Of a stretch of 64,000 nt of DNA, positions 5,630-47,850 are shown in pieces. The first letter of the stretch is position 1. Every line of letters begins with the position of its first letter. Below the pieces are notes generated by a model. That model worked only from the letters and a program-made list of their open reading frames with translations. It did not search any database and was not told the DNA's origin. The DNA is from Patescibacteria group bacterium (GTDB taxonomy: Bacteria > Patescibacteriota > Microgenomatia > UBA8517): assembly GCA_022868165.1 (NCBI GenBank), contig JALHYA010000004.1, forward strand, positions 16,457-80,456, written 5' to 3'. The position numbers were made by a program, and so were the translations under genes.

Positions 5630-5638
5630 AACAACAAA

Positions 5639-8203
5639 CTACCTTCTAAGGATTGGCTTCAATAAAACAATTCTTTCTTCAATGTTAGCTCCAACCTCTG
5701 CAAATTCCTTGGATAATTCCTTCCTGTACGCGTCACTTGCCATGGCCTCCTCCGCTATCCCAGCAAGCATTCCAGCCCTCGCGACAACGGTGGCATAAAA
5801 TTTCGTCATCCTTGCCATATATTCGCCATAGTGTGCATCAATATCGTCTCTTTTCTCGGGCAAATACCTAAAGGCAGTAATCCATTTAGCAATATCCATT
5901 GCCCAATCACTCCTTCTTGATTTGTCTATACCGGCGGCTCCCCACATCCCATGCTCATATGACGTACGAAGTACTACTAAAAGCGGAACAAGCGAGATGG
6001 TCAAGGCTGTCATTGGCAGCTGTTCGTCCCTTTCACCCAAATCGGACCTTTTAAGTAGCTCCTTTAAGTTGTCGGGGCTGGAAAAGAACACTTCCAACTG
6101 ATCCTTCGCTGCCATTTCTGGATCAAGCATTGTAACAACATAGCGAACGGTTTGCCCAATAGTAATCATCCAACGATAGAGTGCTTGATCTCCCATCTTT
6201 TCCCATTTCAACTCGGACATCTTTTCCCCGGTTCTTAACTGATCCCAGACTGTCTGTTGCCCCGGCCTTTCGACCGGTTCGGCCCCTACGTTGACAAATT
6301 TGGGTTTGATGTCTCTATCGCCCTTAAATGAAATTGTATTCAAAAAGTTTAGAGAGGCTATTTCTGGTGGAAAAAAGAAAGGAATTTTCAAAAAAAGAGG
6401 TTTTTCAATTCCGTTCTCGTCTTTGACCATAATTTTAGAATCTTTTATTGATGTTTCCCAATACCAAGCCATCTTTTCCAATAATTTTCGCGTTTTCGGA
6501 TTCCATTCGAAGTTGCCTTCCGGCACCCAAAGTTTGTTCCATGCAGTTCTTAATTTAGGATCCTGATTAACAATTTTTTCTACCTCAATCCAACCCTGTT
6601 TCCAATCTGGAGCATGATCTCCTAGCTCGCTGCGATAATCAGGGCTCGTGGGTGGCAAAAAACCCTTAGACCAGGCCTTGTTTTGATTAACTCTCTCGGT
6701 CTCTCTCCAATAGGCTGGTGTGCTTATGTCGGTCGCAACAGTAGGTCCCCCGAGAGATTTTTCTCTTTTGACATGTAATTCCCAGGGCTCGCTTTTTCTT
6801 TTTTCAATGTCTTTAGTTTCTCGTACATCAATAGAATAATTCCATCCCCACGACATCTCTGCGGAAGACATATGGCCCCAGTCCATCACTACTCCTGCCC
6901 TGGCTACTACTGCAGCCAGTTTGTCCTCTATTTTTCTTGAAGGGGAAAACCAATCCCCAAGCTTCTCTATGTATTTTGCTTTTACAGTGCTAATTAAGTT
7001 GTCCATTCCGACTTGGTCAAAACCTTTAATCCCGTTTTCTTCTTTTTCCAACTTACTTAACTCTTCCCGAGTATTTCCCGTTAGCAAAGTTTCCATTATT
7101 GCCAAATAGGTTCTTTTCTTTTCTTCAACGCTTCCCATGGCGTACCAATTTAGAAGATTAAGCGGAACAGGAGTATCTCCGGTTTTGCCCTTGTAAATAG
7201 CCCAGCCGCCTTCCACTTTGAAATCGCCAATTTTTTGTATAAGCCCTTCTGCATATACCTTGGCTTTTTCTCTAATCTTATCTTTGAGCTTCTCTTCTTG
7301 TGCCCGTTCGGCATCTGGGTCATAGTCGGTAAATACTTTACGAATGAAATATGTTTCTGCCGGTGTCAATTTCTCCATAAAAGTACTATTTGCCGGATCA
7401 TCAAGGTCAATTTGCTGTACCGCAGCAACATTCATTCTCCAATATGCACTGTCATCCTGATACCGAATTGCTTTCTCCCTCAATCCGTCGGCTTTCTCTT
7501 TTAGGACTACTTTCTCCGTATCCGTTAACTTCAATCCAGGCAGTTCTTTGGCAAATGTCCGCTCGTAAAAAGAAGCAGTCGGATCGCTTCGAAGAGGAAC
7601 GCTGACCCACTGCATCATCTTCTTGCCGTCGTAAAAAGCAGGAAGAACGGATCCTAGTCCTTCCAATAATCGAAAGTTGGCCTCACCCCACGTTGCGTCA
7701 ATTGCTATCCTATCTAACCAAGAATCAATCTTTGTCCGAACGTCTTCTTCTGGGCTCGCGCCTGGAACCTTCTCCGGCCACTCCTCTTGCCGGGCTTTTT
7801 GCACGGCTTCGTGCAAATTATCAAACCACATCTCCTGCCTTCTGGAATCGTAAGGATAAGGGCTCTTAAACCTGAGGAGTTGGTTATCAAGCATTCCCTG
7901 AAGCTCGTTTAGCTGCGCTCCCATCAGTTTCTCAAAATTTTTTGGGATCTCTTTTTCTACCCTTGCTGCCAATTCTTCGGCCTCCCTGATTAACTTATCT
8001 TTCTGAGGCCCACTCGCTTCCCTTCTTACTTTATCCAAGTTTGCCAATGCTCTAAGTCCGTTTAAGGTCGCGAGAAAGCTGGGCTCGACATAAAAATACT
8101 CGCGGCCTTCTCCTCTCAAGGGGTCATATTCTCCACCCCCACCCTCCTTGCCCTGTGCTTGGTAGTTAATTCGGGGGCCGAAATCGGGTCTGTTTTCCAT
8201 CAC
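5639..8203 (-). CDS. large soluble hypothetical protein (orphan, Trp/Lys/Glu-rich)
   Basis: An 854-aa uninterrupted ORF antisense to the rest of the cluster, with no TM segment and no recognisable motif. Confidence 0.75.
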   Translation of the reverse strand: MMENRPDFGPRINYQAQGKEGGGGEYDPLRGEGREYFYVEPSFLATLNGLRALANLDKVRREASGPQKDKLIREAEELAARVEKEIPKNFEKLMGAQLNELQGMLDNQLLRFKSPYPYDSRRQEMWFDNLHEAVQKARQEEWPEKVPGASPEEDVRTKIDSWLDRIAIDATWGEANFRLLEGLGSVLPAFYDGKKMMQWVSVPLRSDPTASFYERTFAKELPGLKLTDTEKVVLKEKADGLREKAIRYQDDSAYWRMNVAAVQQIDLDDPANSTFMEKLTPAETYFIRKVFTDYDPDAERAQEEKLKDKIREKAKVYAEGLIQKIGDFKVEGGWAIYKGKTGDTPVPLNLLNWYAMGSVEEKKRTYLAIMETLLTGNTREELSKLEKEENGIKGFDQVGMDNLISTVKAKYIEKLGDWFSPSRKIEDKLAAVVARAGVVMDWGHMSSAEMSWGWNYSIDVRETKDIEKRKSEPWELHVKREKSLGGPTVATDISTPAYWRETERVNQNKAWSKGFLPPTSPDYRSELGDHAPDWKQGWIEVEKIVNQDPKLRTAWNKLWVPEGNFEWNPKTRKLLEKMAWYWETSIKDSKIMVKDENGIEKPLFLKIPFFFPPEIASLNFLNTISFKGDRDIKPKFVNVGAEPVERPGQQTVWDQLRTGEKMSELKWEKMGDQALYRWMITIGQTVRYVVTMLDPEMAAKDQLEVFFSSPDNLKELLKRSDLGERDEQLPMTALTISLVPLLVVLRTSYEHGMWGAAGIDKSRRSDWAMDIAKWITAFRYLPEKRDDIDAHYGEYMARMTKFYATVVARAGMLAGIAEEAMASDAYRKELSKEFAEVGANIEERIVLLKPILRR

Positions 8204-17886: not shown

Positions 17887-17999
17887 ATGACATCCTCCCC
17901 GCTCCAAAGAGCGGGGTTTCCCTCCAAAGGAGGATGACATATCGGCGTTCAATTCATCTCCGCAACAAATTGCGGAGCGTTCTTGAATGCTGTTATAAT
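17887..17999 (+). repeat. promoter-proximal structured repeat, copy b (upstream of rpmH), ending in the extended -10 TGTTATAAT
   Basis: The sequence is atgacatcctcc-ccgctccaaagagcggggtttccctccaaa-ggaggatgacat-atcggcgttcaattcat-ctccgcaacaaattgcggag-cgttc-ttgaatgctgttataat. TATAAT (17994-17999) lies 6 nt before the rpmH ATG. Confidence 0.8.
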
Positions 18000-29009: not shown

Positions 29010-29132
29010 TTCTTAGAAAAGAAGCGGTATTGGGGCTTCTGGGAATGCAGGAAAAGGCGGAATAATCTTCAAAGCATCCTTTTTACCGTTCCTTTTTGAT
29101 TATAGGATTAAGAATTGGTACAATTCGCACAT

Positions 29133-29687
29133 ATGGAGAGGATAGGTAGAAGGGACTTCCTTAAAATTATAAAAGTGGCGGGGGGAGGATTGATCTTGGC
29201 AGGCTGCGGGATTCCTACACCCCATCCAACTCCCGAGGCCGAAGAGGGAGAAATTTTTAGAGGAATAGTGGCAGATCCGGAAGATGGCTCTTTATGGGTT
29301 ATCCTTGATGAAGATTACAGAATTGTAGGAAGCTCGGCTGGAAGCTTCTATCGCTGGGTACCGGAAGAATCTATACCCGTAGATGAAAGACAAGATGGGG
29401 TAAGGTGGGGATTGTGGTCGAATAGGGAAGGGCGAGGAAGGATAAGGTTTATGAGGCTGGAAGGTTTTCAGGGAGATTTAAATTCTTCTATTTTCTTGGC
29501 GGATGCGAATAATGGAACTATCTGGAGAATGGTTGATAGAGACTACAAACTAGTTGGTAACTACCAAGGTATATTTGACGGTTGGGTGGATGAGGAAGAG
29601 GGAATTCGTAGCGGCAGATGGTCAAATAGAGAAGGTTATGGCACAGTCGGATTCGTGTGCATAGAAGAGCCGGAAGAGACTAAATAA
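29133..29687 (+). CDS. Tat-signal lipoprotein with internal two-fold repeat, unknown function
   Basis: Starts MERIGRRDFLKIIKVAGGGLILAGCG, which combines a twin-arginine motif (RRDFLK) with a lipobox (LAGC). Two repeats follow, of the form ADxxxGxxWxxxDxDYxxVGxxxGxFxxWVxEE...WSNREGxG. Confidence 0.65.
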   Translation: MERIGRRDFLKIIKVAGGGLILAGCGIPTPHPTPEAEEGEIFRGIVADPEDGSLWVILDEDYRIVGSSAGSFYRWVPEESIPVDERQDGVRWGLWSNREGRGRIRFMRLEGFQGDLNSSIFLADANNGTIWRMVDRDYKLVGNYQGIFDGWVDEEEGIRSGRWSNREGYGTVGFVCIEEPEETK

Positions 29688-29750: not shown

Positions 29751-31076
29751 ATGAGAGAAAGAATGCCTGAACAGAAGTCTGAAATAGTTGAGGTTCCCCA
29801 TGAGGAATTTGTAGCGCGGGCTATTGTCGAAAACGCCAGAAACATGGCCCGTTTTTCAATTGGCCAAACCCCGCCCCCCAACTTTGATTTGGAGAGAGCA
29901 ACCGATTTGGAAGTTGCAAGACATCTTTCTGATGTACAAGTTGACGACAAAAGTCTAGCACAAGATATAAAAGAGGCTCTTGATAGAAATCTCGCAGACC
30001 CGGATGAAGCTTTTCAGGCAGCAAGCCTGACAGTAGCCAAAGCCATAGCTACAGAAGAAGTCGTATTGCCGAATGAAAGAGGATTCTTTAAAAGAGTCTC
30101 CGATAAAGTGGCAAAAGAGATGGGTCAGCTTATCGCCTCAAAATCCGGGAAGAGAGGTTTAGCTGTAGTTTCTGGCCTTTCGCTTGTCGCCACCGCCTGC
30201 GGTCAGGTTGCCCAAGGAGCAGAACCCTTAAGGCCAATAGACCTTGAAACTCCGACTACCGTGGCCACAGAGGTCAGACCTACCAGCACTCCTTTTTCAC
30301 CGGTTCCGCCAACCGAAATAGCCACCCCCACCCCCGAAGCGGTTAGGGATGAGTGGCAGGTATCGGCAGACGGGCTTATTCTTTACAATGAAGCAGAGTT
30401 ATATGACGGGATGTTTACTATAAACCCGGAACGAACAGGATATCTTTACGAACAACTGATGCGGAGTCTTTATCAAATTAACGTGGCGGGGGAAAATATG
30501 CCCTTCTTAAGACAATTTCCGACTCTCGAAGCTTTTATTCAATATGCCCATACTGGACAACCCATAAATAATATGTGGATTGCCATTGACCACCCGGGAA
30601 GCGGGGTAAGGTACCTGTATCAAGCAACTTGGGCTCCAGTTGAACCCGTAGACCTTTCCTCAACGGCCGTTGCTATTGTCCATCTAACCTATGATGATAT
30701 CGTGCATCCTACCACCCGGGACGAAAGGCCATTCTTTCCCGTCGAGGAGGGCGTGGGCGAGCTGGTAATAGAAAGGGTGGAAATAAACGGCGGTTTTGTC
30801 ATAAGGTTTACTTTCCGGCAAAGTCTTTATGATGACTCGGACTATGGCACTTTAGGGCTGTCAGATGATTATCCTTCGGAGCATAATTTGGCGGCAATAA
30901 CCCAGCTTATGAATGCTTGGTCTTGGGAAGTCGACCATATGAGGGATGATGAGGACGATATTCGTATAACTGGTGCGACCCCGCCCATATTCAACATAAC
31001 CAAAAGTTGGCCCAGTGAGGGGGAATTTAGAGAAATGGCAGAAGATGTTGAGAACTCTCCTTTTGTGCTTCGTTAA
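29751..31076 (+). CDS. hypothetical membrane-anchored/secreted protein
   Basis: 441 aa with an internal hydrophobic segment (GLAVVSGLSLVATACGQ) followed by a Pro/Thr linker. I recognised no family motif. Confidence 0.65.
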   Translation: MRERMPEQKSEIVEVPHEEFVARAIVENARNMARFSIGQTPPPNFDLERATDLEVARHLSDVQVDDKSLAQDIKEALDRNLADPDEAFQAASLTVAKAIATEEVVLPNERGFFKRVSDKVAKEMGQLIASKSGKRGLAVVSGLSLVATACGQVAQGAEPLRPIDLETPTTVATEVRPTSTPFSPVPPTEIATPTPEAVRDEWQVSADGLILYNEAELYDGMFTINPERTGYLYEQLMRSLYQINVAGENMPFLRQFPTLEAFIQYAHTGQPINNMWIAIDHPGSGVRYLYQATWAPVEPVDLSSTAVAIVHLTYDDIVHPTTRDERPFFPVEEGVGELVIERVEINGGFVIRFTFRQSLYDDSDYGTLGLSDDYPSEHNLAAITQLMNAWSWEVDHMRDDEDDIRITGATPPIFNITKSWPSEGEFREMAEDVENSPFVLR

Positions 31077-31122: not shown

Positions 31123-31641
31123 ATGAATAAGCTTCTTTATATTCTATTTGGTATAGTATTTGTCCTTGCTACTGTTTTAGGGGTGTTGTATGAAAGACGG
31201 GGAGGCTTGGTATTTTTGAGTAAAGACAAAATAAACTTCATAAGTAGTAAGAGCGGATTTGAGTGGGAAGTAAACGAAGATTTTGTGCGTTCGCTCGAAG
31301 AGTTGATTAGGACGAAAGAGGGCTCCGAATCGAAGAAAGTATTGGTAGTTCTCTCCTCCGAATTCAAACAAACACCCGAAGGTGGGGGATATGGAGAGCT
31401 TGAACCGTTTGTTTATGCAGAGTGGAGTTCTTCTGGAAATCGGGATACTTTAAATATCTACCTTGATGGCAATATTTGGAAGCAAATAGAAGAAAAGAAG
31501 AGAAATACCCCTGTGTCTTATCTGATATCTCAACAAATTCTGCAACACTTTGAGATGACCGATGAACCTTTAGAGAAGATTACTGAAGATATTTTTAACA
31601 ATGGACCAAAAATTTCTATTAAGGAAAGTTCAATTTTTTAA
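31123..31641 (+). CDS. membrane-anchored hypothetical protein
   Basis: 172 aa with an N-terminal TM helix (LLYILFGIVFVLATVLGVLY). Confidence 0.6.
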   Translation: MNKLLYILFGIVFVLATVLGVLYERRGGLVFLSKDKINFISSKSGFEWEVNEDFVRSLEELIRTKEGSESKKVLVVLSSEFKQTPEGGGYGELEPFVYAEWSSSGNRDTLNIYLDGNIWKQIEEKKRNTPVSYLISQQILQHFEMTDEPLEKITEDIFNNGPKISIKESSIF

Positions 31642-31648
31642 ATTTGCC

Positions 31649-33265
31649 ATGAGGAAACTAATATTGCTAATCTTTTCAGGTTTGATCTTTATTGCATTAT
31701 TTGTTGTCCCCAAAAACATTCAGGCTGCTTGTACTGGTAATACGAAATGCGCACCTTATAGTGGAGGCCATTGTTGGTGGGAGGAGAGTATGTACTATAC
31801 AGTAGGCTGTACCGCCTCGCCACAGTGCGAGGGGAATCCCTGTAATAAGGCCATTTGCCTAGTATCCGATACCTGTGCTTATGTCTGTAATCCTGGTGCA
31901 ACAACTTGTGGTCCTTGTTCCAAAACTTGTGGAGGAGGAATAAGTCTCTGTACGAATGGGTGTAGTTCGTGGAATGTGAATTGTAATACCCAGGCTTGTC
32001 CTCCGCCTGGCTGTCTTTGTGGTAACTGGGTGGACGGCGCCTGCGGTGTTGGTTTATGCGGCTCCAGCGAGCGGCAGCAAACAAGAACCTGTGTCCCTGC
32101 CGCCTGTGCCGCCGAAACCCAATGCGTTGTCGATCCAACTTGTACACTTCCTTCCAGTTGCACCGTTGATCTTCTACCGGCAACAGCCACAACATCAGTG
32201 GGCTCAAGCGTAACGCTTACGGCTTCGGTTACGGTAGGAAGTGGAACCGTTGACCAGGTAAATTTCACTTCTGCCAATACGGGGATTCTTACGGTAAGCC
32301 CGGCTTCCGACAGCACCGTGACGTATCAAACGCAGGCAACAGGGGTGGCCATTGGTTCAACTACCGTATCCACAGAGGTGATTATGGGCGGGGTTTCAAC
32401 TTGCGCTGATAGTGCTGGGTTAGGCGGAGGCACAGTTGTTAATGTGACTTCCGCAGGCCCTTGGTGGCAGGTGATTGATGCGGATATTACAACAAATGGA
32501 AGCATAACATCCAGCATTCCTGGAACTTGCGCCTTGCCGGGATGTAATCCCTTGTTTGATTTGGTCGGCCCCGGAGGCTATCCTGGTGTGCCTGCTTACG
32601 GGGGAACGGCAAGTTTTAGTACAGGCACGGTTTCTACTATTGGATGGCTGGCAAACACTTTAAGTCTAACTTCCAATAACCGGCAATATGCATATGCCTG
32701 GTTTAAGAGACTGATTCCTTCGGATGTAACTATGAATGAGATAACTTCACCTTCCATTGACGGCACCGAGCTTTCTTCAGGGGGAACGGCCAGTGGGGGA
32801 TACTATTATTACCGTTATGACGGCTCAAGCGGGCTGGATTTAACCATAAACACCGATGCTTCGTTGGGCACAAGAAAGGTAATTTTGCTGGTGGACGGGG
32901 CAGATTTGAACCTAAACGCAAGGATTAACTTCACAAAGGGACAGGGATTCTTTATGGCTTTTGTCGGCAAAACCCTGCTGGGGGCCAAGGGTAACATCAA
33001 TGTTTCTTCAACGCTTGGCGGAGGAGTCACACCCCATCTTGAAGGATTGTATGAAGCCGATGGCGCTTTCCATTCAGGAGCAGGAACAACACAGCTTTAT
33101 ATTCGCGGGTCTGTTGCGGCATATGGGGGAATGAATTTGGAACGGAATTTGACCGATAATTCCGCCACCCCGGCCGAAGTCTTTGAATACGCGCCCGATT
33201 TAATCTTCACCTATCCCTATAAACTTAGGGAAAGAAGGATCTTCTGGCAAGAAGTAGCCCCATAG
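31649..33265 (+). CDS. secreted surface protein with thrombospondin-type-1-like Cys repeats and a Big_2-like Ig domain
   Basis: The signal peptide is MRKLILLIFSGLIFIALFVVPKNIQA. CGPCSKTCGGGISLC and W..GACGVGLCGSSERQQTRTC resemble TSR cores (CSxTCGxG...R.R.C). TVDLLPATATTSVGSSVTLTASV...LTVSP is Big_2-like. I moved the start from 31601 to ATG 31649. Confidence 0.6.
   Translation: MRKLILLIFSGLIFIALFVVPKNIQAACTGNTKCAPYSGGHCWWEESMYYTVGCTASPQCEGNPCNKAICLVSDTCAYVCNPGATTCGPCSKTCGGGISLCTNGCSSWNVNCNTQACPPPGCLCGNWVDGACGVGLCGSSERQQTRTCVPAACAAETQCVVDPTCTLPSSCTVDLLPATATTSVGSSVTLTASVTVGSGTVDQVNFTSANTGILTVSPASDSTVTYQTQATGVAIGSTTVSTEVIMGGVSTCADSAGLGGGTVVNVTSAGPWWQVIDADITTNGSITSSIPGTCALPGCNPLFDLVGPGGYPGVPAYGGTASFSTGTVSTIGWLANTLSLTSNNRQYAYAWFKRLIPSDVTMNEITSPSIDGTELSSGGTASGGYYYYRYDGSSGLDLTINTDASLGTRKVILLVDGADLNLNARINFTKGQGFFMAFVGKTLLGAKGNINVSSTLGGGVTPHLEGLYEADGAFHSGAGTTQLYIRGSVAAYGGMNLERNLTDNSATPAEVFEYAPDLIFTYPYKLRERRIFWQEVAP
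33147..33265 (+). repeat. 119-bp perfect direct repeat, copy 1 (3' end of CDS 31649..33265); putative attL
   Basis: Checked base by base, this copy is identical to 39509-39627. Confidence 0.95.
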
Positions 33266-33306
33266 TCTCAAATCCCGAAGTTCTGAAAGTTGCAGGCGAC
33301 ACAAAA

Positions 33307-33336
33307 TTGGACGATAGGCGAGTTGGGCCTTATAAT
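33307..33336 (+). promoter_or_regulatory. candidate island promoter
   Basis: TTGGAC (33307-33312), an 18-nt spacer, then TATAAT (33331-33336), ending 20 nt upstream of ATG 33357. Confidence 0.4.
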
Positions 33337-33356
33337 AGTTTCTCAATAGTATATAT

Positions 33357-33923
33357 ATGGTAGACATCGACAGACTCAGGACATTGCCTGGAGAGGAATT
33401 GGTAAGGCTCGCTTTAAAAGGTGAGGTTATTCTAGCCAGCGAAGAAGGCATTGGAATTCTTGATGGCCAAATCGACCGAACAAAAAATGAAGCAGCTTCG
33501 CTTAAGCTAAGGCTAGGAGAAGTCGCTCGCCAGGACCCAGATTTGCCGGAAAATATAGAATTTAAGGAAATCAAAACCAAGTTACAGTTTGAGATCCCCA
33601 GAAAATTAGACGACTTGGGAAGGAAAAAAGCAAAAACAATAGTCTTTCAAGAAAACCAGGATGGAGCTATCCGTTTTGGAACTCTATTTGAAGCTCGGAT
33701 AGAGTATCCCACTGAGACTACCTCTGGGGTATTTGTTTTTTTGGGACCCATAGAAGCAGCCGCCGGAAAAATTGAGGCCAAACCTGAGGCCCAAGTTATT
33801 TCTTACCTGTCTGTAGTCGGAAAGGCTTTATGGGGTTATGATCCAAATAGTGGTAAACCGGTTCAGTTTGAGACGCCAGCTGGCAAGGCTACTTGTATTG
33901 TTAAAAAAGTTTTCAAGCCGTAA
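33357..33923 (+). CDS. GreA/GreB-family transcription elongation factor homolog
   Basis: 188 aa. The coiled-coil tip ARQDPDLPENIEFKEIK parallels GreA (GDLSENAEYHAAK). The C-terminus VISYLSVVGKALWGYDPNSGKPVQFETPAGKATCIVKKV parallels the GreA C-terminal domain. Confidence 0.65.
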   Translation: MVDIDRLRTLPGEELVRLALKGEVILASEEGIGILDGQIDRTKNEAASLKLRLGEVARQDPDLPENIEFKEIKTKLQFEIPRKLDDLGRKKAKTIVFQENQDGAIRFGTLFEARIEYPTETTSGVFVFLGPIEAAAGKIEAKPEAQVISYLSVVGKALWGYDPNSGKPVQFETPAGKATCIVKKVFKP

Positions 33924-34585
33924 TGATCGAGTCCAAAGAAAGTTCATATCTTTTGTATGGTCCTCCCGCAAGTGGTAAAACTGCACTTGCCCTCGAATTA
34001 AGCAGGAGGATTGCCAAGGAGTACATTTCAGTTGGCGAGCTTACTCGTAGGGAAATCGAATTAGGAACACCTAGGGGTAAAAGACTTCAGAGGTGTTTAG
34101 ACGAAGTTACCGAATATCCAATAGAGTTAATTACAGGATTGGTAGAGGAGAGCATTGTTGCTTGTATGTCGGCGGGCGAGAATTTCATTTTAGATGGTTT
34201 TCCTAAATATGCCCAAGAGGCTCGAGCGTTCGTAAAACTATTAGAAAAACACAGGATTCTCCTAGATGCAGCAATTGTAATTGACCTACCCGTTGAAGGA
34301 GCTTTTGTGCGAGTTCTTAACAGAAGAATTTGTGTTTCCTGTCTAGCGCAAACAGAAGATGGCGGACAAATATGTCCGCAATGTGGAGATGCCCTTACTA
34401 TAAGAGACGACGATATCCCACCCATATTTAAAAGAAGGTATAATGACTATAAGGACTCAATAGACGAAACACTTAGAATTATCGGACCATTTTGTAAGAG
34501 GATAATCCACATACAGGGCTCACAAAGCAAAGAAGATTTATTTAATTTGCTGTATATAAAATTATCCCTTTCCATGCCCGAGTAG
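33923..34585 (+). CDS. adenylate-kinase-like nucleotide kinase with zinc-lid
   Basis: 220 aa with P-loop YGPPASGKT, ILDGFPKYAQEA (compare LDGFPRT), and lid CVSC...CPQCGDALTIRDDD. Confidence 0.7.
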   Translation: MIESKESSYLLYGPPASGKTALALELSRRIAKEYISVGELTRREIELGTPRGKRLQRCLDEVTEYPIELITGLVEESIVACMSAGENFILDGFPKYAQEARAFVKLLEKHRILLDAAIVIDLPVEGAFVRVLNRRICVSCLAQTEDGGQICPQCGDALTIRDDDIPPIFKRRYNDYKDSIDETLRIIGPFCKRIIHIQGSQSKEDLFNLLYIKLSLSMPE

Positions 34586-34651
34586 CTCAGCAGAGAGAGC
34601 GGTTGCGTTGTAAGCAACAGGTCGATGGTTCAAGTCCATCCTCGGGCTCCA
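34576..34651 (+). tRNA. tRNA-Thr (anticodon UGU), CCA encoded, atypical D-loop
   Basis: I folded the cloverleaf by hand. The acceptor GCCCGAG/CUCGGGC has 7 of 7 Watson-Crick pairs. The D stem is GCUC/GAGC, the anticodon stem GUUGC/GCAAC, and the loop G-U-UGU-A-A. The T arm is GAUGG-UUCAAGU-CCAUC, followed by U-CCA. The D-loop AGCAGAGA lacks the usual GG, and position 32 is G. Confidence 0.8.
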
Positions 34652-34658
34652 ACAGTTT

Positions 34659-35576
34659 ATGAAAAATAAGGCCATTTTTACTTGGAAAGAGATCGTAGAA
34701 CTTTTAACTGGAAATGGTCACGCGGTTTCTTGTGCAGACATGAGTTCTCTGATTACATACTCCAGACAGCGTGGAATAGGCACGGCTATTTCTTATCAAA
34801 AAACCTCGTACTCAGAAGAAGGCTTGAAAAATCTTAAACGACTTGTTCGGTGGTGGATTTATCTAGACGATTTCACTATCCCCGAGTGGAGAAACGCTAT
34901 TATTACAAAAAAGATTCAAAAAATAGTTGTCGGCTCGTTAAAAAATAACTTACCTCTGACTTTGTACGCAGTATTCTGTCCTTCCTACAAAAAAGGGGTT
35001 GGAGTATCTGGATATACTGGGAAATTAGGAATGCATACCAAAAGGTATATTCAAAAAATGTCAGAATTCGTTCTTTCCACGGAAGATGCGGGCTTGAAAG
35101 TAAAAGGGACAGCCTTTTTTAGCGACCTTCTTTTAGAAAATTACAAAAGACTTGTCGGAACGAACTATAAAAAGGATCTCGCGTCCAACTTTCGAGAATT
35201 CAAAAAAGATATTAAAAAAAACAGTAAAGGAAAAATAAAAAGTGCTCTTTTGTCATCTATCATGGCCCTTAAGCGTGATGTCGGGGAGAAAGGGATAAAG
35301 ACTGGCCCTTTGGGGATATCAGGTGAGCTTTTTAATACGGTCTTTAAGAGGAATAGAGTTTTTTATACAAACCAGCTTGGCTGGTCGGAGCCCATGGTAA
35401 AAGAAAGAACGGAGGTCTTGGCCAGAAGTTACGCAAAACTTGGGGAATACTTTAGGAAGAAATATCCCGAGGGAATTATGTTTTGGGTAGAGAGTGCTTA
35501 CGAGAGGGGTGCCATGTATAGCGGAAACAATCAGCAGGACCCTATTCCAATAATTTATCCCAAAAAAGATGAATGA
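34659..35576 (+). CDS. hypothetical protein (island orphan)
   Basis: 305 aa and Lys-rich. I recognised no family motif. It overlaps the downstream gene by 8 nt. Confidence 0.7.
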   Translation: MKNKAIFTWKEIVELLTGNGHAVSCADMSSLITYSRQRGIGTAISYQKTSYSEEGLKNLKRLVRWWIYLDDFTIPEWRNAIITKKIQKIVVGSLKNNLPLTLYAVFCPSYKKGVGVSGYTGKLGMHTKRYIQKMSEFVLSTEDAGLKVKGTAFFSDLLLENYKRLVGTNYKKDLASNFREFKKDIKKNSKGKIKSALLSSIMALKRDVGEKGIKTGPLGISGELFNTVFKRNRVFYTNQLGWSEPMVKERTEVLARSYAKLGEYFRKKYPEGIMFWVESAYERGAMYSGNNQQDPIPIIYPKKDE

Positions 35577-36546
35577 CAATTCCAAAATAGAGGGGCTTCT
35601 AAGCAACTTGGAACTTGAGTGGTTTAGGCTGGGCCGAGATTTCCACCTCGATTTTGAATTTCTTACAAATCTTTACAGCAAGGAGAAAAAACATATTTTC
35701 GAACATAGCCCCTATCATGTACTCTCCTATTTACGATTCAAAAACCAGCTCTACGGTATTTCAGGCAGATTTGGTTCTCTAGTTTTGGTTTCGAGAAAAG
35801 ATGACAAATTTCTATTTACCCCTCGCATTGACGACTTTAAATCATTCGAGCTTTTTATCAAAGCAATTAAAAGGAGCCTCGGGGTTACCAAAATTGAAAT
35901 TCGGAACGTCAGTGAGCAATGGTTACAATCATTCCTGGTGAATGTATCAAATGTTGCGAAAAGGGGGATGTCTGTGAAAGAGCGCTCAAGGGAGGAGGCT
36001 ATCTATGATGTCGACCTGTTGTGCGAACTCCGCGGAAAAGATTTTGCAGGGATTAGACAATCCAGAAATAAGTTGTTAAACAGTGGAAGTATTCAGTTTA
36101 AGCCCTTTACTAAAATTTCCTTAAAGGACGGTGTAGGGGTCTTAAATAAATGGCAGAAAGTCCAAGGTTGGAAGTATGTTAAAGAGAGAATAGAGAAAGA
36201 GAAATATGTACTTGCGAGATTTTTTGATTTTTCTCGGTTAACAAAGAATGTATTGTGTGGGGTTGGCTATTATAAGGAAGTGCCTTTAAGTATTCTGGTT
36301 ATGCACCTTGTTCCAAACGGGGAAAAAAGCGGAACAATCTACCTACTTAAAGGAATAAACAGGCCTTCTGACGGGGGCACCCATGGAATATCAGATGCTA
36401 CTTACTGTTACGCTTTCCTTAGAGCTAAGGAGATGGGTATAAAATACCTCAATGATGGAGAATTGGGAACAGAAGAGGGTACAAGGAGACACAAACTCAA
36501 TTTTAAGCCGATAGAATTTCTCAAATCCTACGACGTTTTGCTCTAA
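35569..36546 (+). CDS. DUF2156-type (MprF/LysX C-terminal-like) putative aminoacyl-tRNA-dependent transferase
   Basis: 325 aa. EEAIYDVDLLCELRGKDFAGIRQSRNKL and the C-terminal YLNDGELGTEEGTRRHKLNFKP match the pattern I recall for DUF2156 (…Y…L..L.G......R...N.F … N.G......GL..FK..F.P). Confidence 0.55.
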   Translation: MNDNSKIEGLLSNLELEWFRLGRDFHLDFEFLTNLYSKEKKHIFEHSPYHVLSYLRFKNQLYGISGRFGSLVLVSRKDDKFLFTPRIDDFKSFELFIKAIKRSLGVTKIEIRNVSEQWLQSFLVNVSNVAKRGMSVKERSREEAIYDVDLLCELRGKDFAGIRQSRNKLLNSGSIQFKPFTKISLKDGVGVLNKWQKVQGWKYVKERIEKEKYVLARFFDFSRLTKNVLCGVGYYKEVPLSILVMHLVPNGEKSGTIYLLKGINRPSDGGTHGISDATYCYAFLRAKEMGIKYLNDGELGTEEGTRRHKLNFKPIEFLKSYDVLL

Positions 36547-36548
36547 AT

Positions 36549-37688
36549 ATGAAACAGCTAAGAACGAATGAGTTTTATAACGAGATCGAATTTGAAAAAA
36601 TTTTCCCCCCTCAACTTTATGAAAATTTCAACTCTGAATTGCCAGCACCACTAAATGGACGGACAACAATTTTCACCTTATATGGCAGAAATGCTCTGTA
36701 CCTTGGTGCGAGAGAGATGTTAAATTTGACTAAAAGAAACATTGTGCTAGTTCCGGCCTACTCGTGTGGGGATGAAATAGCTCCATTTGTAGCTTCCGGT
36801 TGCAGAATTAAAGCTTACCGTGTACACCCTGAAACCTTGCAGGTAGATAAAAAGGATATTGAGCAGAAATTGGATCAGAATGTTTCTGCGGTTTTGATAA
36901 CACACTATTTTGGTTTTCCTCAAAAGGAAATAGAAATTATAAAAAAGATATGTGGAGAAAGGGGAGTCGTACTTATTGAAGACTGTGCCCACGCTTTTGC
37001 GGGTGGATTTAAAAACATCCCCCTAGGTGCTTTTGGGGACTTTTCCATTTTTAGTTTAAGAAAGTTTTTGCCTATTCCGCATGGGGGAGCTCTGGTCATA
37101 AATAACACGAAGATAAACAGACCAAATCCCCTCCCGCCACCGGCTACGGCAGTAAATCTTGACCTTTTTCTTTATTCGGGTTACCAGGCTGGTATTTTTA
37201 CGCGAGGAATAAACATTCAGGACACACTCGATATGGTAGGTGTCAAACAAAAAGATTTACATGGCCCACGGCTAAAAGAGTTTGGTGGTTATAATTTAGG
37301 TCTTTCCAATGTTGCAAAAGTTCTAATCGCATTTATTGCAAAGCAGAAATTGTGGACAAAGAGAAGATCAAACTTTCTTTATTATTTGGACTTTTTCGAA
37401 AAGAATTCGCATAAATCGGTGCAACCGCTGTTTGAATTCCTTGAGAAAGGGGTAGTACCTTTATTTTTTCCTGTTCTAGTAAACGACTCTGAAGAGATAT
37501 ATAAAAGATTGAGAGACAAGGGCCTTTTTGCTGGACAACCATTCTGGTCTGATTCCCATACCTATTTCAACTGGGCTGATTTTTCGCCCTTAAACGAGCT
37601 GAAGAAGAAGGTTATGGTTTTGCCAGTGAATCATAGAGTCCATTATCGAGACTTAAAGCGTTTCCTTGAAGTTTCAGACTATAGGTAG
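36549..37688 (+). CDS. DegT/DnrJ/EryC1/StrS-family PLP-dependent aminotransferase
   Basis: 379 aa with VLITHYFGFPQ, LIEDCAHAFAGG, and FSIFSLRKFLPIPHGGALV, which places the Lys at the PLP position. Confidence 0.75.
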   Translation: MKQLRTNEFYNEIEFEKIFPPQLYENFNSELPAPLNGRTTIFTLYGRNALYLGAREMLNLTKRNIVLVPAYSCGDEIAPFVASGCRIKAYRVHPETLQVDKKDIEQKLDQNVSAVLITHYFGFPQKEIEIIKKICGERGVVLIEDCAHAFAGGFKNIPLGAFGDFSIFSLRKFLPIPHGGALVINNTKINRPNPLPPPATAVNLDLFLYSGYQAGIFTRGINIQDTLDMVGVKQKDLHGPRLKEFGGYNLGLSNVAKVLIAFIAKQKLWTKRRSNFLYYLDFFEKNSHKSVQPLFEFLEKGVVPLFFPVLVNDSEEIYKRLRDKGLFAGQPFWSDSHTYFNWADFSPLNELKKKVMVLPVNHRVHYRDLKRFLEVSDYR

Positions 37689-37700
37689 TATAATTCTTTT

Positions 37701-38978
37701 ATGTGTAGAGACATGTATATACTGTTTGGGCCTCCTGGAAGTGGTAAAACTGTCCAGGCGAGATTTTTGTCCCAAAGGTTGAAACTGGACGGTATTTCAT
37801 GGGGTGACATCTACTGGGGTACAAAGTTTAACAAGAAGTACAAGGGACAAATTGCTGTAATAAAGAAGGAGGCTATCTCTGACAGAACTCGCTCGAAGGA
37901 GATAGCAAAGATAATTGACAAGGAAATTGGCAGCCTTACTTTACGAAATAAAGGCGGGAAGCGGGGGTTGGTTTTGGACGGATTTCCTAGAAGATTGGGA
38001 GAGGCTAGACTCCTTCTTAAAATATGCAAGAAAAGGGGATACAGAATAAAATCCTTGATTCGCATAAATCCATCTTTAGATTTTTCAGCGAACCGCTTCA
38101 AAAAAAGGCTTTTTTGTGAAAAATGCCGCGCTTATTACGATGAACTCAATCTACCCAAGAAGAAGGGTCGTTGTGATTTAGACGGCGGAAGGCTATCTCA
38201 TATGGATATTTCAAAGGAGAGTGTGGCGAAAGAATTTAACACCTATTTAGACGAATGTCTCGAAACATTTGAATATCTCAAAGATTATGCAGACATTTTT
38301 TTTGATGTAACTGGCGACGATGAAGATATGGTTATTTCTTCAAATATTCTTATTAAAATAAAGAATAGAATTCGAGAAAATTATAGTCTCTTTTCAAGAA
38401 AGCCCTCTACATCTATTATGACTAAGTACGGTAGTTTTAAGCTTGTACCCTATCAATCACGACTAGATTATTCCTACCACTTAGCGCTTGTAAAGGGAAA
38501 CGTTAGAGATGGAAAACGAGTACTGGTTAGGGTTCATTCCTCTTGCATAACCGGAGATATTTTTGGGTCCTATATGTGTGATTGCGGAGAACAACTAGAG
38601 GAATCCATGAAAAGAATCGAGCACGAAAAGAGGGGAGTTTTAATATATTTATTTCAGGAAGGCAGGGGCATAAACATGATTAACAAAATTCAAGCTTACA
38701 GGTTACAACGCAATGGGTATGACACAGTGGATGCTAATGAAGCCATCGGTTTTCCAGCCGAAATGAGGGACTACCGGTTAGTGAAGGAGGTTTTGGAGGA
38801 TTTGGGGGTAAAAACAATTAGATTGTTGTCCAATAGTCCCGAGAAGATCAATAAACTTACAGACCAGGGAGTTATTATAGAAGAAATGGTTGGAGTCGAA
38901 GTAGAGCCTCGAAAGTGGAACAGAGGATACTTGCTTACAAAAAAGGAGAAAATGGGTCATAAGTTGGATGTTTCATAA
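37701..38978 (+). CDS. fusion protein: adenylate-kinase-like N-domain + GTP cyclohydrolase II (RibA-like) C-domain
   Basis: The N-domain has LFGPPGSGKT, LDGFPRRLGEA and lid CEKC...CDLDGG. The C-domain has VRVHSSCITGDIFGSYMCDCGEQL, conserving the three Zn Cys of RibA, plus QEGRGINMINK...GYDTVDAN...LLSNSPEK. ATG 37713 is an alternative start. Confidence 0.75.
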   Translation: MCRDMYILFGPPGSGKTVQARFLSQRLKLDGISWGDIYWGTKFNKKYKGQIAVIKKEAISDRTRSKEIAKIIDKEIGSLTLRNKGGKRGLVLDGFPRRLGEARLLLKICKKRGYRIKSLIRINPSLDFSANRFKKRLFCEKCRAYYDELNLPKKKGRCDLDGGRLSHMDISKESVAKEFNTYLDECLETFEYLKDYADIFFDVTGDDEDMVISSNILIKIKNRIRENYSLFSRKPSTSIMTKYGSFKLVPYQSRLDYSYHLALVKGNVRDGKRVLVRVHSSCITGDIFGSYMCDCGEQLEESMKRIEHEKRGVLIYLFQEGRGINMINKIQAYRLQRNGYDTVDANEAIGFPAEMRDYRLVKEVLEDLGVKTIRLLSNSPEKINKLTDQGVIIEEMVGVEVEPRKWNRGYLLTKKEKMGHKLDVS

Positions 38979-39507
38979 TAATATGAAAGTTGTTTTAGGG
39001 TCCACAAGTGATGATAAAAAAAGAATTGTAAAGGCAGCCCTGAAATCTCTTGGTGTAAAGGCTGTGATTGAGGGGGTTACTGTCTCTTCGGGGATAAGTG
39101 AGCAGCCTTTAGATAAAAAGACCACGATTTGCGGTGCAGTGAATCGGGCGGTAGAAGCCTTGAAAATTAAAACCGATTCGGACCTCGCTGTGGGGTTAGA
39201 GGGGGGCTTGGATCGAGTAAAAGATTCAGGCTTTTTTCTTGTGTGTGCGGCTGCTATATATGACAAAAGCGGAGGAATCTATCTGGGAACGAGCAGGAAA
39301 ATAAAACTTCCCAAAGAAGTATCTGAAAAAATAGAGGAGGGGGCATTTTTCGGAACGGTAATTAGAGAATATAGAAAGAAAGTAAGAAAAAATAAGGCAT
39401 TGTTTAATCTTTCAGACCAACTTATAACAAGAAATGTCCCTTTTTCAGAGGCAATACGAAACGCCTATAAATCTTTCAAAGAAGGTACACTCTATCAAAA
39501 GTTTTAG
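38968..39507 (+). CDS. YjjX-family non-canonical purine NTP phosphatase (ITPase/XTPase)
   Basis: MKVVLGSTSDDKKRIVKAAL...VSSGISEQPL...GAVNRA...LAVGLEGGL resembles the inosine/xanthosine triphosphatase family. ATG 38983 is an alternative start. The stop ends 1 nt before repeat copy 2. Confidence 0.6.
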   Translation: MFHNNMKVVLGSTSDDKKRIVKAALKSLGVKAVIEGVTVSSGISEQPLDKKTTICGAVNRAVEALKIKTDSDLAVGLEGGLDRVKDSGFFLVCAAAIYDKSGGIYLGTSRKIKLPKEVSEKIEEGAFFGTVIREYRKKVRKNKALFNLSDQLITRNVPFSEAIRNAYKSFKEGTLYQKF

Positions 39508-39508
39508 G

Positions 39509-39627
39509 ATTTGACCGATAATTCCGCCACCCCGGCCGAAGTCTTTGAATACGCGCCCGATTTAATCTTCACCTATCCCTATAAACTTAGGGAAAGAAGG
39601 ATCTTCTGGCAAGAAGTAGCCCCATAG
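39509..39627 (+). repeat. 119-bp perfect direct repeat, copy 2 (orphan copy of the gene 3' end); putative attR
   Basis: Identical to 33147-33265. It ends 2 nt before the convergent tsaD stop codon (39630-39632). Confidence 0.95.
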
Positions 39628-39629
39628 GT

Positions 39630-40835
39630 TTAGGCTGAATCGACAATCGTCATCTCCGCGTTAGCTGAAATCTTTTCCAAGGAAGCGGGTTTGTTGTTGA
39701 AAAAGGCATATGAGGCGATATATGCGGCGTTGTCCGTGCAGAGATTTGCGGGAGGAAATCGTAAATCAACTTTTAACTTTTCACTTTTCACTTTTAACTC
39801 AAATACTTGTCGAAGACGAGTATTAGCCGATACTCCTCCAGCTAAAAGAAGGGATTTGGGCTTGAATTTCTTTACTGCGTCCAGAGTCTTTTTAACTAAA
39901 ACGTCAACGATTGCCTCCTGTATTTCTGCTGCCAGCCTGGAAGTTAGAGGTGGGAAGCTTGAAGCTGGATGTAGATGTTGGAGTTTAGATTTATTCCAAC
40001 TTCTAACTTCTTTGTCCAGCTTCTCACCTCTATTTTCCAATTTCTCTGTTTCCCTAAGCACCGCTGTCTTAAGGCCCGAAAAACTGAAGTCAAAATTATC
40101 CTCATCAATCATCGGTCTGGGAAGTAGATTTAGTTGGAAGTGGGAGGCAGGAGGCTGGAAGTTCGCTGCGGCGGCGGCGATGGCTGGTCCTCCCGGGTAG
40201 GGAAGTCCCAAAAGACGGGCGGACTTGTCAAAAGCCTCGCCGGCCGCATCATCCCTTGTTCCTCCAATCCACTCTATTTTTCCCCGCCCGCCAGCGCTAC
40301 GCGCAAGCGTTGCGGGCGCGGCGTGGCCTTTCATCAGAACCAAATCCGTATGTCCTCCGGAAACAACCAGTGCCAGTGCCGGAAATTCCGGCCGACTATC
40401 CGTTAGCCAGTTGGCGTATATGTGTGCCACAAGATGGTTAACCGGAATAACAGGCTTTTTCCATAAATAGGAAAGGGTTTTGGCCGTTTCTACTCCGACC
40501 AAAAGGGAACCAATAAGGCCCGGCCCGACGGTTACGGCAATGGCGTCTATATTGGAAGATAGAAGATGGAGGTTTGAAGCTAGATTTTGATGTTGGATAT
40601 TAGATTTTTCCTCCAACTTCGAACTTCTAACTTCAGAGACAGTACTTAGTGCTTCGGAGATAACAGGAAGAACGCTGAGAACCTGCTGGCGTGCAGCCTG
40701 CTCCGGGATTACGCCGCCAAATTTGGCCTGCATTTCCGCGCTCGATGCAACAACATTGGAAAGAATTTTTGTTCCGTCTTCGACAACTGCCGCTGCAGTT
40801 TCATCACATGAGGTCTCTATCCCCAGAATTTTCAT
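39630..40835 (-). CDS. tsaD: tRNA N6-adenosine threonylcarbamoyltransferase TsaD, with low-complexity insertions
   Basis: Contains MKILGIETSCDETAAAVV, AIAVTVGPGLIGSLLVG, VVSGGHT, GGTRDDAAGEAFDK, FSFSGLKTA and LAGGVSANTRLR. At 401 aa it is longer than typical TsaD proteins, which as I recall are about 330-350 aa. Confidence 0.9.
   Translation of the reverse strand: MKILGIETSCDETAAAVVEDGTKILSNVVASSAEMQAKFGGVIPEQAARQQVLSVLPVISEALSTVSEVRSSKLEEKSNIQHQNLASNLHLLSSNIDAIAVTVGPGLIGSLLVGVETAKTLSYLWKKPVIPVNHLVAHIYANWLTDSRPEFPALALVVSGGHTDLVLMKGHAAPATLARSAGGRGKIEWIGGTRDDAAGEAFDKSARLLGLPYPGGPAIAAAAANFQPPASHFQLNLLPRPMIDEDNFDFSFSGLKTAVLRETEKLENRGEKLDKEVRSWNKSKLQHLHPASSFPPLTSRLAAEIQEAIVDVLVKKTLDAVKKFKPKSLLLAGGVSANTRLRQVFELKVKSEKLKVDLRFPPANLCTDNAAYIASYAFFNNKPASLEKISANAEMTIVDSA
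39768..39800. repeat. tandem heptamer repeat (AACTTTT/CACTTTT x4) inside tsaD
   Basis: The sequence aacttttaacttttcacttttcacttttaactc encodes ELKVKSEKLKV on the coding strand. Confidence 0.75.
39936..40046. repeat. GGAAGTT-type palindromic heptamer element, in-frame inside tsaD (copy B)
   Basis: The left half is ctggaag|ttagagg|tgggaag|cttgaag|ctggatg... The right half is ...ccaacttctaacttctttgtccagcttctcacctcta. The arms are mutually complementary, and the element is homologous to 40551-40640. Confidence 0.75.
40551..40640. repeat. GGAAGTT-type palindromic heptamer element, in-frame inside tsaD (copy D)
   Basis: The sequence is attggaagatagaagatggaggtttgaagctagattttgatgttggatattagatttttcctccaacttcgaacttctaacttcagagac. 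With copy B it shares gatgttgga..ttagattt..ccaacttc..taacttc. Confidence 0.75.
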
Positions 40836-47741: not shown

Positions 47742-47850
47742 ATGACATCCTCCCCGCTCAAAAGAGCGGGGTTCCCTCTAAAGGAGGATGACATATCAGC
47801 GTTCAATTCATCCCCGACTAAGTCGGGGTTTTCTTGAATGCTGTTATAAT
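47742..47850 (+). repeat. promoter-proximal structured repeat, copy c (upstream of ORF 47860)
   Basis: The sequence is atgacatcctcc-ccgctcaaaagagcggggttccctctaaa-ggaggatgacat-atcagcgttcaattcat-ccccgactaagtcgggg-ttttc-ttgaatgctgttataat. Confidence 0.8.

Follow-up and report, generated by a model that had tools for sequence, protein, structure and literature searches.

Organization of the locus and of the encoded protein

We analysed a stretch of 64,000 nucleotides (the window) from a Patescibacteria group bacterium (GenBank assembly GCA_022868165.1, contig JALHYA010000004.1, positions 16,457 to 80,456 of the forward strand), and in it a gene for a cysteine-rich exported protein of 538 residues, the last of a block of four genes on the same strand (Table 1). 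Bacteria of the Candidate Phyla Radiation (CPR, or Patescibacteria) are thought to live attached to hosts, and few attachment proteins are known. An earlier note on this DNA had described the product as a surface protein with thrombospondin-like repeats and as a candidate adhesin. The protein (hereafter the query protein) consists of a Sec-type signal peptide, a cysteine-rich N-terminal region with two recognizable modules, a single, probable immunoglobulin (Ig)-like domain and a conserved C-terminal domain that is predicted to fold into a β-solenoid. With moderate confidence we read it as a Sec-exported, disulfide-stabilised, modular, adhesin-like cell-surface protein, one of a family that belongs largely to Woesebacteria/Microgenomates.

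The open reading frame (ORF) and the signal peptide proposed by the earlier note both stand. The N-terminus (MRKLILLIFSGLIFIALFVVPKNIQA, with AC following the presumed cleavage site) is signal-peptide-like, and a hydrophobicity scan detects a single hydrophobic segment, at aa 1-19. The cysteines had been put at more than 30; the actual count is 25 in aa 27-172 (146 residues, 17%) and 28 in the whole protein. The cysteine density of aa 27-172, which is kept across homologs, is far beyond chance. The two cysteine motifs quoted in the note are exact, starting at aa 87 and aa 126, and the first segment of the region (aa 27-85) differs from homolog to homolog. None of the four proteins encoded by the block is represented by a model in NCBIfam, and a search of a word-indexed protein database with the 147-aa cysteine-rich region alone returned no match.

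Table 1. Features of the locus, in coordinates of the window, with the basis of each assignment
Feature	Coordinates	Strand	Basis or remark
Main gene, 538 aa + stop	31649..33265	+	ORF list; alternative upstream ATG at 31601
Sec-type signal peptide, aa 1-26 (MRK, hydrophobic core, NIQA/A)	31649..31726	+	Sequence reading and hydrophobicity scan; cleavage site inferred
N-terminal Cys-rich segment, aa 27-85, 9 Cys, without assignable fold	31727..31903	+	
Module 1, aa 86-118, degenerate short TSR-like module CGPCSKTCGGGISLCTNGCSSWNVNCNTQACP	31904..32002	+	Family-module hidden Markov model
Module 2, aa 119-170, one copy of the 8-Cys repeat	32003..32158	+	Profile and AlphaFold2
Probable Big_2-type Ig-like domain, aa 171-262	32159..32434	+	Pfam in homologs, family profile
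Conserved C-terminal domain, aa 263-538, predicted right-handed β-solenoid of IBP (DUF3494)/ComZ type	32435..33262	+	
190-aa protein, RR motif and LAGC lipobox-like N-terminus	29115..29687	+	Kept in close relatives only
441-aa protein, one internal hydrophobic segment, conserved upstream partner family	29751..31076	+	
172-aa protein, N-terminal membrane anchor, likely partner	31123..31641	+	Hydrophobic segment aa 1-19; immediately upstream of main gene
119-bp direct repeat, copy 1, last 38 codons + stop of main gene	33147..33265	+	
6.2-kb segment between main gene and orphan 3′ end	33266..39508	.	Pfam, tRNA scan
119-bp direct repeat, copy 2, orphan 3′ end without upstream ORF, abuts tsaD 3′ end	39509..39627	+	
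tsaD	39630-40835	minus	

The C-terminal solenoid and the Ig-like domain

The C-terminal region had been described as rich in Gly, Thr and Ser. Residues 263-538 form instead a conserved and confidently modelled domain, the C-domain, which begins with PWWQVxDAD and ends with W[KQ]EVAP-COOH, the end of the domain coinciding exactly with the C-terminus in 116 of 117 homologs. The AlphaFold2 model, computed from a 120-sequence alignment, consists of short parallel strands and has a mean predicted local distance difference test (pLDDT) value of 90.7 and a predicted template modelling score of 0.89. By structural comparison the predicted model is a triangular right-handed β-solenoid of the type of ice-binding protein (IBP) 1. 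Beyond structures of the IBP/ComZ type the comparison scores fall to 8.6 or less (autotransporters, bactofilin, lyases, tailspikes); what the model matches is therefore the triangular solenoid of IBP-1/ComZ specifically and not β-helices generally. The C-domain is the conserved core of the family and not a low-complexity tail.

Two kinds of protein with this fold invite comparison. The DUF3494 or type-1 IBPs (PF11999; ColAFP 3wp9, SfIBP_1 6bg8, AnpIBP 7bwx and 5uyt) are likewise secreted: they commonly have signal peptides, often carry Big-type Ig domains, and are found in non-icy habitats including groundwater (PMC11645318). They differ from the query family in that no sequence-profile match connects the two and the identity in structural alignments is only 13-17%; their long flanking helix is not evident in the C-domain model; the query family is restricted by lineage and not by habitat; and its solenoid lies always at the very C-terminus, with the invariant W[KQ]EVAP end. 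ComZ, the tip pilin of the competence pilus of Thermus thermophilus (6qvi), has a solenoid that resembles FfIBP and is a DNA receptor at the pilus tip (PMC6561018). The ComZ solenoid is inserted into a pilin fold, whereas that of the query protein follows an Ig domain in a Sec-signal protein without pilin features.

The Big_2-like Ig domain claimed by the earlier note is sub-threshold in the query protein itself (16.5 bits, E 0.0084, against a Pfam cutoff of 22.8), but the claim holds at the level of the family: Big_2 is above threshold in many homologs at the aligned position, and the family profile matches solved Ig domains of the Big_2/Lig type with E values of 1e-5 to 3e-3. An Ig-like spacer is thus well supported by sequence for the family as a whole. 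Cys252 is invariant in the family alignment (A1) and Cys171 is conserved as well, and the two may pair as a disulfide. Adhesins of the LigA/LigB type with Big_2 domains (Gram-positive bacteria, Leptospira) share with the query protein a signal peptide, Ig-like spacers and variable terminal binding modules, and the family profile matches the Ig domains of LigB/LigA. Unlike them, the query protein has only one Ig-like domain, lacks sortase and lipobox anchoring, and is extremely rich in cysteine in its N-terminal region.

The cysteine-rich modules and their relation to thrombospondin repeats

The earlier note had likened both cysteine motifs to the type-1 thrombospondin repeat (TSR) of animals and apicomplexans. 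The Pfam model of this repeat, TSP_1 (PF00090; gathering score 21.6 bits), and its sister models match neither the whole query protein nor sub-pieces of it, even at E≤10. Our own TSR profile was made from eight canonical repeats; as a validation, it recovers properdin, THBS1, UNC5, ADAMTS, BAI1, TRAP, CSP, C6-C9, F-spondin and Sema5A from the PDB. With filters off it gives the query protein 2.4 bits at aa 88-118, a score reached by 566 of 5000 composition-preserving shuffles. The silence of TSP_1 does not extend to the family, however. Members with a precomputed TSP_1 annotation were found by a profile search using the C-domain alone, and on re-scanning, four sister proteins pass the gathering score (P0313, 26.2 bits; P0314, 25.2; P0327, 24.1; P0304, 22.3), the match in P0304 spanning profile positions 2-49 of 49. 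P0316 stays below the threshold with 15.2 bits. These matches are accompanied by sub-threshold ones to the TSR variants of ADAMTS, spondin and CCN; NSWGAWSACSVSCGGGTRTRTNACGTVQSQGCNPQPC is an example of such a module. Modules that pass the TSP_1 threshold do, then, exist in CPR bacteria. A literature search for type-1 TSRs in CPR/Patescibacteria turned up only papers on type-3 repeats or unrelated ones.

Shorter relatives of these modules, with the pattern W..CS.SCGGGTQ..CG....CNTQ.C, are present in 12 family proteins. From 13 short TSR-like modules of the family (alignment A7) a hidden Markov model (HMM) was built that excludes the query protein and its two closest relatives. Compared with canonical TSRs by hhalign, A7 gives a probability of 96.8% (E 2.8e-10), but over 14 columns only, those of the W..CS.SCG.G.Q core. 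On the query protein the A7 HMM aligns aa 86-117 nearly end to end (HMM positions 5-33 of 34), with 17.8 bits in the whole protein and 19.8 bits in the isolated cysteine-rich region; none of 5000 composition-preserving shuffles of that region reaches the score of the query, the best attaining 9.2 bits. Because the A7 HMM matches aa 86-117 above all shuffles, module 1 is, as judged from sequence, a divergent or degenerate member of the short TSR-like class.

How degenerate it is can be read from its residues. Module 1 shares with TSP_1 repeats (THBS1 TSR2-3, properdin, TRAP) the CSxTCGxG loop, here CSKTCGGG, and the terminal CNxQxCP, here with CNTQAC, and its sister proteins carry WxxWxxCSxSCGGGTRTR modules above the Pfam threshold. 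It lacks, in contrast to TSP_1, the WxxW(xxW) tryptophan motif of strand A, Cys87 occupying the place of the tryptophan of the sister modules, and it lacks the RxR(xR) ladder, the TRTR strand of the sisters being reduced to ISL and followed by an extra cysteine. It counts seven cysteines with neither the Trp nor the Arg ladder, and an extra disulfide may have replaced the Trp-Arg packing. The bacterial modules are also short, about 34-40 aa with a reduced C-terminal half, compared with 50-60 aa in TSP_1.

Module 2 is of a different kind. Its consensus, CxCxxWxNxxCGxGxCxxxx[RM]xQTRxCxPxGCxxExRCxxDxxC, describes an 8-Cys repeat that no Pfam model covers. Within the family it is found in only 9-11 of 121 proteins. 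By contrast, at E≤1e-3 its profile matches 640 representative proteins out of 1.84 billion, some with up to eight tandem copies. The partner domains are extracellular ones (Big_7, PKD, fn3, CARDB, Hint, T4SS_pilin, Peptidase_C39_2), and the named carriers (listed proteins P0121-P0269) include members of the CPR (Paceibacterota, Microgenomates) and of the DPANN archaea (Pacearchaeota, Woesearchaeota, Nanoarchaeota). A repeat without a Pfam model is thereby common to CPR and DPANN, both groups of ultra-small symbionts. N-terminal domains of the Hint/intein type are present in P0063, P0105, P0110 and P0123, proteins that share either the C-domain or the 8-Cys repeat; they hint at autoprocessing in part of the family.

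The AlphaFold2 model of module 2 has three strands (pLDDT 85-94). A single tryptophan is conserved, in 97% of 330 copies, and one arginine (column 28, 96%); at another position Arg (45% of the copies) alternates with Met (43%). The repeat has CGxGxC in place of the CSxTCGxG loop. Its profile matches no PDB sequence at E≤10, and hhalign gives it probabilities of 4% (11 sequences) and 2.5% (330 copies) against TSRs and 3.9% against the short TSR-like class A7. On account of these low values we no longer regard motif 2 as a TSR by sequence. The 14 columns that hhalign aligns between module 2 and the TSRs, at this low probability, fall in the register expected for C2...R.R.C3. A Foldseek search with the model returned 16 matches, of which six are Sema5A TSRs (three entries), THBS1 TSRs, midkine and pleiotrophin, all weak (E 5-9); since TSRs make up about 0.04% of distinct PDB sequences by the TSR profile, TSR and TSR-like proteins are strongly over-represented among the weak matches of this predicted model. 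We therefore describe module 2 as a TSR-shaped ribbon, TSR-like in predicted shape only: like TSP_1 it would be a three-stranded, disulfide-stapled ribbon with one conserved Trp, an RxQxR strand and a C-x10-C spacing as between C2 and C3 of the TSR, and unlike TSP_1 it has eight cysteines, the CGxGxC loop and no detectable profile similarity.

The strong form of the TSR proposal holds that both motifs are functional TSP_1 repeats whose Trp-Arg ladder, like that of TRAP or properdin, would bind glycans or proteins of the host. We regard this as improbable. The CSxTCGGG and CNTQxCP signatures of module 1 speak for it, as do the best members of its class, which pass Pfam TSP_1; against it, TSP_1 finds nothing in the query protein and the canonical TSR HMM does not separate it from shuffles, the strand-A Trp and the RxR ladder are missing from module 1 (with Cys87 standing in for the former), and module 2 resembles neither TSRs (hhalign 2.5-4%) nor the short TSR-like class (3.9%). 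What survives of the earlier proposal is that motif 1 belongs to a short TSR-like class with TSP_1-passing members; its Trp/Arg core is gone, and motif 2 is a separate repeat. The earlier note had named two findings that would speak against a TSR: the silence of the TSP_1 profile, which was observed, and an unrelated fold, which was not borne out, since motif 1 matches the TSR-like class. The query protein is not to be filed as a member of the TSP_1 family.

The family and its conserved neighbours

Database searches returned 140-160 homologs, nearly all from Patescibacteria/Microgenomates; in one search all 140 were unnamed, 'hypothetical' or from Patescibacteria. In species-representative genomes the C-domain is encoded at 72 loci, nearly all of them from Candidatus Woesebacteria, Microgenomates or 'Patescibacteria group', together with a few metagenome-assembled genomes (MAGs) of Chloroflexi. 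Judged by these records, the family is largely confined to Woesebacteria/Microgenomates. Many MAG records titled 'uncultured Gammaproteobacteria bacterium' (L008, L009, L020, L021 and others) encode a family protein; their titles seem to be placeholders or mistaken taxonomic labels.

Across the family, Big_2 and the C-domain of about 276 aa are conserved, and the N-terminal part is cysteine-rich but variable and shuffled, some members carrying Hint, PA14, fn3 or LamG modules there instead. The analysis so defines an uncharacterised, lineage-specific family of putative surface proteins whose architecture can be tested: the disulfide modules are shuffled, an Ig spacer and an IBP/ComZ-like solenoid follow, and the membrane partners are conserved.

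As the earlier note proposed, the gene closes a block of four genes for secreted or anchored proteins: each of the three upstream products has one hydrophobic segment, and the genes are syntenic in relatives. The order in the close relatives L001-L003 is the 190-aa gene (L002 and L003 only), a gene for 441-445 aa, one for 172-173 aa, and the family gene. Of the 69 family genes contained in the fetched loci, 52 are directly preceded by an ORF on the same strand, and at about 33 of these 52 loci this ORF encodes a protein of 165-230 aa with an N-terminal hydrophobic segment, at -37 to +22 bp from the family gene. This narrow spacing suggests translational coupling of the small anchored gene with the family gene. 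Proteins related to the one of 441 aa were detected at 18 loci; their genes lie in every case upstream, on the same strand and within 4 kb of the family gene. Overlaps of these upstream genes with family genes are frequent. At the locus L002 the 441-aa protein has two additional tandem paralogs (384 and 379 aa; 5016-7376), placed between valS and the 190-aa gene, where the window has a NUDIX gene.

Some longer members of the family (P0009, P0011, P0012, P0014, P0042) have a membrane-anchored N-terminal extension fused before the cysteine-rich part. The idea that the 172-aa protein is a split-off version of the extension in P0009, P0011, P0012 and P0014 was rejected, as neither BLASTP nor an iterated profile search gave a link.

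Proposed function

On the reading that we favour, an adhesin-like protein of the cell surface, the product would be exported and oxidatively folded, with about 12 disulfides in its N-terminal region. A capacity of CPR bacteria to oxidise secreted cysteine-rich proteins is suggested by their enrichment in MdbA-like disulfide oxidoreductases and VKOR; most of the families enriched in Microgenomates are also non-cytoplasmic (bioRxiv 10.1101/335083). It would then stay attached to the cell surface, probably by way of the conserved membrane-anchored products of the genes immediately upstream, and would serve there in adhesion or as a receptor for a ligand. The conserved solenoid could offer a flat face for binding or docking, and the fast-evolving, shuffled cysteine-rich modules could confer lineage-specific specificity. 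An adhesin role is plausible, and the protein may, as the earlier note had it, take part in contact with host cells.

Several observations weigh against this reading. Residues 27-118 are poorly modelled by AlphaFold2, with a pLDDT of about 30. The query protein carries no recognised anchoring signal (LPXTG, PEP-CTERM or pilin N-terminus), so that its retention at the surface is a matter of conjecture. The 172-aa partner is kept in position and topology but has no detectable sequence similarity beyond close relatives. Pfam Ice_binding (PF11999) has no match at E≤10 in the C-domain or in 10 diverse homologs, and no solved structure in the PDB is related to the C-domain by sequence; because of this, the predicted link of the C-domain to IBP and ComZ is at the level of fold only.

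The fold of the C-domain raises two further possibilities. It is quite improbable, in our estimate, that the solenoid is the working part of the protein, binding a regular inorganic surface (ice or mineral) as canonical DUF3494 proteins do, with the remainder as a stalk. DUF3494 proteins do occur in groundwater and sediments and may bind minerals (PMC11645318), and one family member comes from 0.1-μm-filtered groundwater; yet the Ice_binding model is silent, the C-domain model has short helices only where canonical IBPs have their long flanking helix, and the family is confined to one CPR lineage and does not track cold habitats. That the solenoid is an extracellular DNA receptor like that of ComZ, serving the scavenging of DNA and nucleotides on which CPR bacteria depend, deserves very little credence: ComEA is present in only about one third of CPR genomes, so another DNA binder is anticipated (bioRxiv 10.1101/335083), and type IV pilin genes lie within 5-8 kb at two distant loci, but these may be coincidental, since CPR genomes carry many, and the query protein has a Sec-type signal and no pilin N-terminus, so that it cannot be built into a pilus as ComZ is, no prepilin motif G[FY]T[LIVM]xE occurs in any frame of the window, and the DNA-contacting lysines of ComZ lie between its pilin domain and its solenoid, the pilin half having no counterpart here.

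The 3′ end of the gene as a probable point of insertion

The 119-bp repeat at the 3′ end of the gene was correctly noted before: the two copies are identical, and the first ends at the stop codon. The 6.2-kb segment between them carries genes for a GreA-like protein, an adenylate kinase, tRNA-Thr(TGT), a protein of unknown function, an LPG_synthase_C-like protein, a DegT aminotransferase, an adenylate kinase-GTP cyclohydrolase II fusion and an NTPase_I-T protein. No integrase is encoded in the segment, and neither an integrase nor an RNA gene lies at the 119-bp repeat. The G+C fraction is 0.400 in the segment, 0.463 in the four-gene block and 0.48 in tsaD.

Comparison with relatives is informative. 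The locus L003 is about 95% identical in nucleotides over the upstream block and 86% over the rest of the gene. Its gene and tsaD are 703 bp apart; the 6.2-kb segment is absent and a different cargo (DUF5674 and an 86-aa ORF) is present, flanked by a 29-bp repeat of that gene's own end (4460-4488 and 5163-5191). The tsaD-proximal copy of this repeat, with its flank, is orthologous to that of the window. An orphan 3′ end of about 100 bp (1915-2043) also adjoins tsaD in L076, a more distant relative, and in L002 an orphan remnant (7385-7413), ending in MRWKEVAP and a stop, follows the two extra 441-aa paralogs. In several genomes inserted DNA is bordered by orphan copies of the last 27-119 bp of the gene, and in three lineages such copies adjoin the 3′ end of tsaD. 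The contigs L070, L074 and L075 of the MAG CAZDKH01 begin with the same 3′ end of a family gene (about 45 codons, in the first ~140 bp of each) and then diverge; from these shared starts it follows that the 3′ end is present in that genome in several identical copies, at which the assembly breaks.

Taken together, the sequences suggest that the conserved 3′ end of the gene is a recurrent point of insertion or recombination without an integrase. On the simplest reading the ancestral state would be a convergent junction of the gene with tsaD. DNA would have been inserted repeatedly just upstream of the conserved 3′ end, or inside it, and the incoming DNA would each time have supplied a replacement 3′ end. 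Campbell-type integration, in which one homologous crossover takes place within the conserved 3′ end carried by a circularised donor fragment, would have the same outcome and require no integrase.

It is possible, if rather unlikely, that the 6.2-kb segment is not mobile and that the 119-bp duplicate arose during assembly or was left behind when a tandem paralog was deleted. The lack of an integrase and the housekeeping type of the genes in the segment, tRNA-Thr among them, fit such an origin; tandem paralogs and orphan 3′ ends occur in relatives, and an exact repeat of 119 bp could lead an assembler along a circular or strain-variant path. Neither an artefact nor a deleted paralog sits well with L003, where 703 bp with a different cargo and its own 29-bp 3′-end repeat separate the gene from tsaD, with the distant L076, which retains an orphan 3′ end beside tsaD, or with the G+C fraction of the segment, which is below that of its flanks. 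The evidence from L003, L076 and G+C content fits repeated real insertions upstream of an ancestral gene-tsaD junction, and the 3′ end of the gene appears on this account to be a recurrent insertion point.

Two wider proposals can be made, which we consider unlikely. In the first, the WxxWxxCSxSCGGGTRTR modules would be true homologs of eukaryotic TSRs, a native adhesion module of episymbiotic CPR that was shuffled with the CPR-DPANN 8-Cys repeat and mounted on an IBP/ComZ-like solenoid. In the second, the ultra-conserved 3′ end of the gene would be an integrase-free recombination site that has repeatedly captured neighbouring cassettes. The results are targets for structural work, binding assays and comparative genomics, and none of them overturns current understanding.

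Some smaller observations concern the 6.2-kb segment and the rest of the window. The tRNA-Thr(TGT) gene lies at 34576-34651, between the adenylate kinase gene and the ORF of 305 aa of unknown function; the segment would not be dispensable if this were the only copy in the genome. Two adenylate-kinase-like genes are present in the segment (33923-34585 and 37701-38978), and one of them is fused to a GTP cyclohydrolase II (RibA-type) domain, an unusual fusion. Elsewhere in the window, a 49-nt direct repeat with 92% identity occurs at 17914-17962 and 47768-47816, about 30 kb apart.

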